Shown here: one piece after another, positions 43,512 to 45,193 of the stretch
Layout: every line of letters begins with the position of its first letter
How positions within the stretch are numbered: the stretch's first letter is position 1
DNA from: Schleiferiaceae bacterium
Lineage (GTDB): Bacteria > Bacteroidota > Bacteroidia > Flavobacteriales > Schleiferiaceae
Reading direction: 5' to 3'
Assembly: GCA_018401735.1 (NCBI GenBank)
Contig: JAGYKI010000012.1
Span: 6,683 to 70,682, forward strand
DNA length: 64,000 nucleotides
Made by a program: the position numbers and the translations under genes
Notes under the pieces: generated by a model
What the model was told of the DNA's origin: nothing
What the model saw: only the letters and a program-made list of their open reading frames with translations
Databases searched by the model: none

Positions 43512-44068
43512 ATGGTGATAAAGCAAGAAAGGCAGCGAGAGGAAAAGTTCTCATTGCCGAACCCTTAATGGGAGATCCCAATTTTGATAGAACGGTTGTG
43601 TTTCTTACCGATCATAACTCTGTGAGGATCAGTAGGGTTTATTCTTAACCGTTTGGTTGAGGTATCATTTAACGATTTAGTACTTGATTTCCCTGCTTTT
43701 GAAACCGCAATTGGTGAGGGTGGCCGGTTCAGCAAGACAACCTTTTTCTTTCTACGCCAAGGTGATCTATTACCCGGTAGTGAAGAAATTATTGCTGGCG
43801 TTTACTGGGGTGGTGATTTTAATATTCTTAAGAACTCATCAGCCTTGAGCTAATAAGCGCCAATGATATTCGATTTTTCTTAGGCTATAGCGGTTGGAGT
43901 GCCGGCCAGTTAGAAGCTGAAATAGATCAAAAGCCTGGCAAATTGCTCCCGCCGATCCTCAGTTGATTTTTGTGATGTTCCCGGTAAGATATGGCCTAAG
44001 TTTTAGCCAGTTTGGGTGGAGATTACCCTTTATGGCAAAACACGCCTTTGGATCCTAACTTAAACTAA
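43512..44068 (+). pseudogene. YqgE/AlgH family protein, frameshifted (probable sequence error)
   Basis: GKVLIAEPLMGDPNFDRTVVFLTDH, GFILN, GVYWGGDF, RFFLGYSGWSAGQLEAE, PLDPNLN stop. Confidence 0.88.
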
Positions 44069-44326
44069 GGTGTGTTCGACGTAAAATTAGGGCTCAGACC
44101 TCTTGTAAATAGTGGGTTTCAAGCCGAAGCAGTGAGTAATAGCGGGCTATTGTGAGCTGCTGAGGCGTGGGCTTTCATTTAGAAAGGGGCCCTGACAGAT
44201 TTTCCAATAAAAATGAAAATCCTGCATCTAGCTCATTTGCTGTAGCCCGCTACAGCTGCACGATCCAGACTAGTTTTTTTCCTTCCATTGAAAATCTGAG
44301 GCTCTAATTTATGGTCGAATTCACGT
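44068..44326 (+). mobile_element. 259-bp copy of the miniature element, 7-bp TSD TAAACTA
   Basis: Colinear with 28431-28691; taaacta at 44061-44067 and 44327-44333. Confidence 0.88.
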
Positions 44327-45193
44327 TAAACTAAGCGCAAGATTAATATTGATTTTCTTGAGCATTTCAGTGGCCTTTTGATGGCCATAGCTTTTCTTAC
44401 GATATTGCCCCACCCATTGTAAGCCTTTAATGCTATTGCTCAACCACACTTCATCGGCTTTTTGTAAGGCAAAGGGAGAAAAAGCTTCTTCTTTAATGCT
44501 AAGGCCTAGTTGTGGGGCTAATTCAATAACCTTTTTTCGCATAATACCTTTAAGACAACCACTATCTAAAGGAGGCGTAATTAAGACATCTCCTTTTAAG
44601 ATAAAGATATTCGCACTGATAGCCTCTGCTACTTCTTTGCGCTCATTTATTAATAAGCATTCATCAAAATTGTTCTCCTTTCTGAAAATGCTCGCAACAG
44701 TATACAATTGAGCCGAGGTACTCTTTAAGTTACCCAACATGCCACTATTTTTATAAAAGTCTTTGTAGAGCTCAATATTTAAACCTTCCTCATTAAGTTG
44801 ATAGATACTGTCTGACAATTCCTCGGCTGTTATCAAAAAATCAATATCGTTCGTTTCAGGAGTATAAAAACCCCCTGCTTTTCTTACCACCAATAGTTTA
44901 ATTCGGGCAGACTTATCACTAAGATGATTCGCTGCTAAAGTTTTACGAATTTCCTCTTCTAAATACTCGGGACTAAAAGTCATAGGAATGTCCATGCGAA
45001 CGATACGCATGGAAGCCATCAGCCTAAAGTAATGATCTTCCCAAAAGTTAATGCGGTTATTGGCGAATTTGATAGTCTCAAATATCCCGTCGCCATAGTT
45101 TAAGCCTCGGTTATTTACCTGAATACCCAAGTGCTTATTGCGAATTATAAAGCCATTTAAATTATAGTCCATCGTCATTTTTTCAGGGCGCAA
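44321..45193 (-). CDS. Class IV aminotransferase / 4-amino-4-deoxychorismate lyase-like
   Basis: NRGLNYGDGIFETIK; WEDHYFRLMASMR; CLKGIMRK. The TGA stop is supplied by the MITE end. Confidence 0.9.
   Translation of the reverse strand: MRPEKMTMDYNLNGFIIRNKHLGIQVNNRGLNYGDGIFETIKFANNRINFWEDHYFRLMASMRIVRMDIPMTFSPEYLEEEIRKTLAANHLSDKSARIKLLVVRKAGGFYTPETNDIDFLITAEELSDSIYQLNEEGLNIELYKDFYKNSGMLGNLKSTSAQLYTVASIFRKENNFDECLLINERKEVAEAISANIFILKGDVLITPPLDSGCLKGIMRKKVIELAPQLGLSIKEEAFSPFALQKADEVWLSNSIKGLQWVGQYRKKSYGHQKATEMLKKININLALSLT

Follow-up and report, generated by a model that had tools for sequence, protein, structure and literature searches.

An apparently IS982-derived MITE in the convergent overlap of yqgE and an aminotransferase gene leaves both proteins nearly unchanged in the sister species that share it

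How can a transposable element come to lie across the shared end of two converging genes and yet spare the proteins that both of them encode? The question is raised by a locus within a 64,000-nucleotide stretch of a Schleiferiaceae contig (the window), in which a 259-bp non-coding MITE, putatively derived from IS982 and flanked by a 7-bp duplication (TAAACTA), occupies positions 44068-44326 between a yqgE/algH-family gene and a gene for a class IV aminotransferase-fold protein. The genome from which the window is taken (G000) comprises 3.21 Mb in 88 contigs at 41% G+C and is 99% complete. We consider it likely, with a probability of roughly 0.85, that an IS982-derived MITE inserted at TAAACTA within the convergent overlap, that this insertion was near-neutral and persisted, and that the family to which it belongs has been shaped by selection. 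The features on which the argument draws are the following.

43512-44068, forward strand: yqgE/algH-family gene (three-frame translation; alignment with G003 and G012; NCBIfam YqgE/AlgH hit of the G003 orthologue)
44055-44057, reverse strand: former stop (TAG) of the aminotransferase gene (reconstruction and empty sites in six relatives)
44061-44067, no strand: left copy of the target-site duplication, TAAACTA, 7 bp (flank comparison of family copies)
44068-44326, forward strand: MITE of the apparently IS982-derived family (56 aligned copies; nhmmer; fold; no notable ORF)
44068-44098, forward strand: left terminal inverted repeat, reading AGGTGTGTTCGACGTAAAATTAGGGCTCAGA in G000
44296-44326, reverse strand: right terminal inverted repeat, whose last 6 nt, 44321-44326, encode Thr and TGA
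44327-44333, no strand: right copy of the target-site duplication, TAAACTA, 7 bp (flank comparison of family copies)
44321-45193, reverse strand: class IV aminotransferase-fold gene (PabC/IlvE/Dat-like), intact, 290 aa (Pfam PF01063)

The segment, which has imperfect inverted ends, is enclosed by a 10-nt direct repeat, TTAAACTAAG, at 44060-44069 and 44326-44335. Beyond the duplicated TAAACTA, the three extra bases of this repeat are the terminal T and A of the element and one chance G. Alignment of 56 copies and a flank profile of 302 ends show that the element reads A(C)GTGAR TTCGAC ... GTCGAAYTCACGT. The original prediction had described the sequence of 44051-44345 correctly; the coordinates of the element are here corrected to 44068-44326 and its duplication to 7 bp. 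The terminal inverted repeats are approximately 31 nt long, imperfect, and conserved over the 56 aligned copies; the left one begins ACGTGAGTTCGA... in the family and in the orthologous copy of G012, as against the AGGTGTGTTCGACGTAAAATTAGGGCTCAGA of G000. A parse in which the element is TAACGTG...CACGTTA with a duplication of 2-3 bp is ruled out by copies flanked by fully duplicated TCAATA, TTGATA and ATATTA. Since the entire 6-mer is duplicated in these copies, the TA-only duplication typical of Correia, ERIC and RUP elements, and of IS630/mariner-type elements, does not apply here. Inverted ends, copy-specific duplications, small size, multiple copies and a lack of coding sequence together identify the element as a MITE. 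Its coding capacity amounts to just one 46-aa chance ORF, and it folds as a hairpin over its whole length (-88.9 kcal/mol, z = -4.3). No terminator-like site of the SPRITE type, that is, a G+C-rich stem followed by a T run, lies within 44068-44326.

The element belongs to a large family. A BLAST search of G000 with the segment returned 124 hits, and an nhmmer profile returned 274, of which 98 are full length; once duplicate calls were dropped, 231 unique ends remained. The nhmmer profile was used instead of a search for a 13-mer end motif with at most two mismatches, which gave about 300 hits, about half of them expected by chance. In the alignment of 56 near-full copies with their flanks, the consensus ends of the family are ACGTGAR-TTCGAC...GTCGAAY-TCACGT, and the profile of 302 ends is Y-T-A-W-W-T-A/ACGTGA, the slash marking the junction. 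Among 75 paired copies the duplication is exact in 45 (6 bp in 28, 7 bp in 13 and 5 bp in 4) and has one mismatch in 14 more, with a consensus of TA-W2-3-TA. ACGTG is found at 239 and ACCTG at 46 of 338 listed end calls, which reduce to the 231 unique ends. The copies in G000 are diverged (75-92%) and often truncated. The family is present in G000, G003, G012 and G015 and sparser in G014; searches of five other congeners and of 22 other genera sampled from the bacterial family did not find it.

G000 also houses a second MITE subfamily, with ACCTGAG ends and 5-bp duplications (for example TTTAA and TTCAA), which recurs in L050, L057, L062 and others; the two subfamilies parallel two groups of full-length IS982 elements found elsewhere. 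At G000:C2:104059-104572, a gap of 5 bp separates two MITE copies in head-to-tail orientation, and it appears that the second copy was inserted at the first one's duplication. Nested or clustered copies are found at several further loci of G000, and solo ends of 25-60 nt are numerous.

What could have mobilized such a family? Elements of the IS982 family, as represented in ISfinder, are about 1 kb long, have ends that start with AC, generate duplications of 3-9 bp and encode a PF13612 transposase. The MITE family has AC-initial ends and 5-7 bp duplications, and a transposase-bearing element with the same termini exists: in G012, a decayed element with a PF13612 match (E = 3.4e-25) is bounded by ACGTGAGTTCGAT.../...AACGAACTCACAT, its ends being also given as ACGTGAGTTCGAT/ATGTGAGTTCGTT, with the duplication TAATTA on both sides. 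When this fragment was used as a probe, dozens of elements of 1.01-1.03 kb were recovered in Flavobacteriaceae, Kordia, Aquimarina, Paludibacter, Capnocytophaga and others, with ACGTGAGTTCGA termini at both ends and TA-rich duplications of 6-7 bp; these relatives of about 1.02 kb were assigned by their termini and duplications, and the intactness of their ORFs was not checked one by one. Other genera also contain a sister group of full-length elements in which the ends are ACCTGAGTTCGATTAAT and the duplications 5 bp long. The intact relatives, which belong to other genera, show 44-80% identity, and in the nearest genome the parent survives as a decayed remnant only. The termini and duplications shared with the G012 remnant and the 1.01-1.03-kb relatives point to a MITE family derived from IS982 and tied to a widespread Bacteroidota lineage. 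Compared with IS982 insertion sequences, whose ACGTGAGTTCGA termini and TA-rich 5-7 bp duplications are the same, the present MITE is without a transposase and has a quarter of the length.

In the 99% complete genome of G000 itself, no match to an IS982-type transposase (PF13612) was found, and the partner transposase that current mobility would need is thus missing from the same genome. The family is, therefore, probably immobile in G000 now. Two transposases with a DDE domain (PF01609) do occur there, one IS1182-type and one IS4-type, and their ends are unrelated to those of the MITE. Each was considered as the autonomous partner and rejected: the IS1182-family transposase is single-copy and has different inverted repeats of its own, and the IS4-type element at C1:197.5 kb has other ends. 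A search for end motifs paired 0.3-6 kb apart in G000 produced as candidates host genes between two separate MITEs and, in one case, this IS1182-family transposase. The IS1182-family element (G000:C23:160145-161623; transposase of 493 aa with PF05598, PF01609 and PF13751; inverted repeats GAGGGCACTGAAAAA) is apparently inserted into a membrane-protein gene, and a near-identical copy exists in G015 (L017).

The consequences for the two genes can be read directly from the junctions. The last codons of yqgE are ...D-P-N-L-N-TAA, and the stop at 44066-44068 is composed of two nucleotides of the duplication (TA) and the first base of the element (A), exactly the rebuilding of TAA that the original prediction had described. 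On the opposite strand, the aminotransferase gene, which encodes a PF01063 domain (E = 6.7e-52) ending at residue 261 of 290 and for which every NCBIfam hit fell under the cut-off, now reads TTA ACG TGA, with its stop at 44321-44323 inside the right end of the element. Here, too, the prediction that the other inverted repeat supplies ACG TGA is borne out at 44321-44326: the C-terminus is ...LALSLT-stop where the ancestral reconstruction gives ...LALSLS-stop, identical in length and with one change of Ser to Thr. The old TAG at 44055-44057 is stranded beyond the element and, together with 44066-44068, marks an ancestral convergent overlap of 14 nt. Removal of the element and one copy of the duplication restores GGATCCTAACTTAAACTAAGCGCAAG, the same empty site as had been proposed, in which yqgE ends AAC TAA and the aminotransferase gene ends AGT TTA AGT TAG (L-S-L-S-stop).

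Six relatives preserve the locus in its empty form. The orthologous site reads ...CCTAAGCTAAACTGAGTGCGAG in G014 and ...GGATCCTAGTCTAAACTAAGCGCC in five more distant congeners; the last codons of yqgE give ..L-N-stop, and those of the aminotransferase gene give either L-S-L-A-stop or L-S-L-D-stop. The architecture is the one that had been reconstructed, and the predicted L-S-L-S-stop agrees with these endings in length and pattern. One may ask whether these sites are empty by loss, the relatives having deleted an ancestral 259-bp spacer by way of short repeats, since a direct repeat of 7-10 nt could mediate deletion too. This is scarcely credible: G000 has about 98 full-length copies scattered over unrelated loci, and each is flanked by a TA-rich duplication of its own; those more distant congeners whose site is empty do not have the family; and the empty sites retain both reading frames and the 14-nt overlap.

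The insertion is shared by two sister species. G012 carries it at full length with the same TAAACTA duplication, and G003 (L004, G003:C7) carries it minus approximately 95 bp of the interior, with both ends and the duplication kept; in each, yqgE is intact at 187 aa. Because the insertion is shared in this way with an intact yqgE, it predates the split of G000, G003 and G012 and is compatible with both genes. G015 is without it and has one TAAACTA only. In G015 a different MITE, about 100 bp long and with ends of the ACCTGAG type, has inserted independently a few bases from the same site (L002, G015:C2, ~1400-1510); its junctions are degraded, yqgE is untouched, and the aminotransferase ends L-N-L-S-stop with its length kept.

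Retention in three species invites the thought that the hairpin was exapted, and was kept since it separates or insulates the two converging transcripts as a terminator or RNA-processing site. The ancestral 14-nt overlap left no room for a terminator, the fold of the element is stable, a related MITE arose at nearly the same spot in G015, and published MITE and REP families favor convergent gene ends (PMC3184786). Nevertheless, the element is devoid of an intrinsic-terminator motif, the G003 copy dispenses with a good part of the interior, and the six relatives with the empty site manage with the bare overlap. We thus regard such a role as quite improbable, and return to a near-neutral insertion.

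That the insertion left both proteins nearly unchanged is demonstrable only in the sister species sharing it. The original prediction had made this claim for G000, in which yqgE is frameshifted and not intact as assembled, differing from its counterparts in G003 and G012 by eight one-base deletions and one insertion. The damage extends well beyond yqgE. A patch of approximately 3.8 kb (40197-44200) contains broken versions of fabH, pdxH and yqgE, and no ORF of at least 100 aa is found between 40197 and 44320. Across 41579-44067, 32 deletions and 8 insertions are private to G000, versus 1-2 in each sister species; the private substitutions of G000, at 151 versus 127 and 143, are not in excess. 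The left margin of the patch is formed by a MITE end fragment (40248-40305) together with a stretch that resembles an IS4-type element at its ends; on the right, the patch extends into the left half of the MITE, where 19 G000-private differences from the subfamily consensus are found, versus 4 in the right half. Elsewhere in the G000 assembly, neither yqgE nor the patch has a second copy. Because the ratio of indels to substitutions exceeds 1, and because the boundaries fall inside repeats, a noisy assembly is likelier than decay, and the patch is probably low-quality sequence. On the same grounds, 40 private indels without a substitution excess and a patch that ends inside a repeat, yqgE as a true pseudogene was set aside. 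Whichever reading holds, the patch is unrelated to the MITE insertion: the genes are intact in G003 and G012, which share it.

The stretch at the left boundary, 40306-41580, aligns at both its ends with the IS4-type element of G000:C1:197451-198622 (roughly 130 nt per end, at 89-95% identity), while its middle is unaligned. Either this is a decayed copy of an IS or it belongs to the noisy patch; at this point the sister species have some 0.7 kb in place of 1.4 kb.

The sequence of events that we favor is as follows. A non-autonomous derivative of a Bacteroidota IS982-family element would have transposed into TAAACTA, within the 14-nt overlap of yqgE and the aminotransferase gene, in a common ancestor of G000 and at least two sister species. 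The duplications suggest that the transposase would make a staggered cut at TA-W2-3-TA and so duplicate 6-7 bp. Since, on either strand, the final TA of the duplication is followed by the initial A of the element, a frame entering with TA at codon positions 1-2 would meet an immediate TAA, and the next frame would read ACG TGA. yqgE would have taken the first route and remained unchanged, and the aminotransferase the second, exchanging Ser for Thr at the same length. Because the changes were so slight, the insertion would have been near-neutral and persisted; this takes the Ser-to-Thr exchange, and a 259-nt hairpin in both 3' UTRs, to be neutral. Insertions into coding interiors and promoter-containing spacers would have been removed by selection, and the copies that remain would for this reason be concentrated at the 3' ends of genes and in the spacers of convergent pairs.

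The mechanics that had been proposed from this one locus are correct and recur throughout the family. At 76% of ends TA/A forms a TAA directly, at 98% the second frame is closed by ACG-TGA, and the third frame closes at nucleotides 17-23 in about 60%. An ORF of at least 100 codons receives its stop from 21 of the 231 unique ends (14 by TA/A, 6 by ACG-TGA and 1 further in), and the stop lies inside the duplication at 11 further ends. When the protein before insertion was compared with that after it at 18 gene ends of paired copies, 14 were unchanged; at the present locus one residue is changed, one gene has lost 3 residues, and two ORFs have lost 22 and 66. A second copy sits in a convergent overlap at G000:C31:6892-7078, where the neighbors (754 and 497 aa) keep their exact C-termini with TA/A at both junctions, and a third lies between converging gene ends at G000:C5:57741-58000, where one protein stays as it was and the other is 3 residues shorter.

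It had been further suggested that, from either end, stops occur in all three frames within about 25 bp. This is the case at both ends of the present copy; family-wide, 46% of ends have every inward frame closed within 25 nt, versus 6% of random TAA sites. The last comparison could be taken as a sign of adaptive design, in which the TA/ACGTGA...TAA ends and the TAWWTA target were selected to regenerate stops in every frame and thereby permit a high copy number. The sharp spike of gene stops at the junction (14 TA/A and 6 ACG-TGA, as counted above) and the conservation of the termini across many genera would accord with this proposal. Against it, conserved termini are already predicted by transposase recognition, a TA-bounded target hits TAA and TAG through composition alone, and the right end of the main subfamily leaves one of the six inward frames open for approximately 100 nt.

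The distribution of insertion sites across the genome bears on the same issue. We classified the sites of 58 excised copies with recognizable duplications, taking ORFs of at least 100 aa (2528 ORFs, 87% coverage) as genes. Thirteen overlap a stop codon, one (the present locus) falls in the last 10 codons, 8 lie within 30 nt downstream of a stop, 31 are elsewhere in intergenic sequence, and 5 are inside ORFs; by comparison, about 75% of all TAWWTA sites in G000 lie inside ORFs and 2.9% overlap a stop. The check that had been called for, of element ends at stop codons against matched sites, does reveal enrichment: 13 of 52 non-coding sites overlap a stop versus 5.5 expected from the non-coding occurrences of the same k-mers (simulation P = 0.002), a 2.3-fold excess that rests, as do the other tests here, on a set of 58 sites in which ORFs of at least 100 aa stand in for gene calls. 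This excess, too, might be enlisted for adaptive design. Stops are not, however, preferred over the next 30 nt downstream: the ratio of stop-overlapping sites to those 1-30 nt downstream is 13:8 for the MITEs versus 226:188 for control sites (P = 0.65), and the two classes are jointly enriched (21/52 versus 24%, P = 0.006). Moreover, convergent spacers contain 19 sites versus 10.6 expected and divergent spacers 7 versus 11.9 expected (chi-square P = 0.009), and depletion in divergent spacers and ORFs is a signature of selection acting after insertion. The enrichment thus concerns gene 3' ends generally, not stop codons specifically. Such an excess is what would remain if purifying selection had cleared insertions from ORFs and promoter regions, and it would fit a degree of genuine preference for 3' ends just as well.

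How far, then, do nearly harmless insertions amount to a strategy for reaching high copy number, as had been suggested? The suggestion is partly supported, in that its mechanics and the 3'-end enrichment hold; it is weakened by the missing preference for stops, the inherited termini, the open frame and the frameshifted state of yqgE in the G000 assembly. A strategy is not demonstrated, and the enrichment fits survivorship as well as design. Since full-length IS982-family elements of many genera already carry TA/ACGTGA, and the MITE has it from them without change, the ends are not a feature that a high-copy MITE evolved, and we consider adaptive design unlikely. Equally doubtful is the wider proposition that the IS982 lineage specializes in stop codons, especially the shared stops of converging genes, through its transposition reaction rather than through later selection, and that its termini are kept partly for the supply of stops to every entering frame. 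Survival of near-neutral insertions, rather, would account for the family as we observe it.

Comparable elements have been described in other bacteria. The Cardinium endosymbiont of Oedothorax gibbosus has an IS982-derived MITE of about 240 bp with ends like those of ISCca4 (PMC9769881). Like the present family, it is found in a Bacteroidota host, is non-coding, lies in the size range of about 240-260 bp, has IS982-matching ends and has undergone a lineage-specific expansion; it differs in having intact parents in the same genome and in being thought active (PMC9769881), whereas in G000 the parent is absent and the copies are diverged and often truncated. Stop codons are not mentioned in the text of that paper (PMC9769881). 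In Coxiella burnetii, QMITE1 and QMITE2 overlap the final bases of functional genes (PMC5896051), and MITEAba12 has stops in all six frames and fuses to neighboring genes (PMC6382973). These and other 3'-end MITEs overlap the last 1-50 nt of genes, as the present one does, and give rise to short C-terminal replacements or extensions (PMC5896051, PMC6382973); QMITE1/2 and MITEAba12 have other parent families and duplications, and the papers contain no test of stop coincidence against matched sites (PMC5896051, PMC6382973). The SPRITE and REP repeat families are biased to convergent gene ends (PMC3184786). A hairpin, a TA-containing target and a 3'-end or convergent bias are shared with the Correia (Neisseria), ERIC and RUP MITEs and with SPRITE and REP (PMC3184786, PMC10969869); the present MITE is set apart by a duplication of 6-7 bp rather than TA and by the absence of a terminator-like motif.

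Taken together, these comparisons place the locus within a known pattern. MITEs at gene 3' ends, stops in six frames and a convergent bias are known already, and the same pattern is seen in other MITE families; the outcome described here is the ordinary result of a TA-rich target, the sequence of the ends and selection removing harmful insertions. Within that pattern, the locus provides a worked example, complete with empty sites and copies shared by descent, of how a TA-rich target and an A-initial end spare both of two overlapping genes. It also supplies a baseline for the family, in which contact with a stop codon is seen at 14% of ends and stop overlap exceeds that of matched sites 2.3-fold, and it draws attention to a probable low-quality assembly patch that makes three genes look like pseudogenes. 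Finally, a previously unnamed MITE family is now linked, by shared termini and duplications, to a widespread IS982 lineage.
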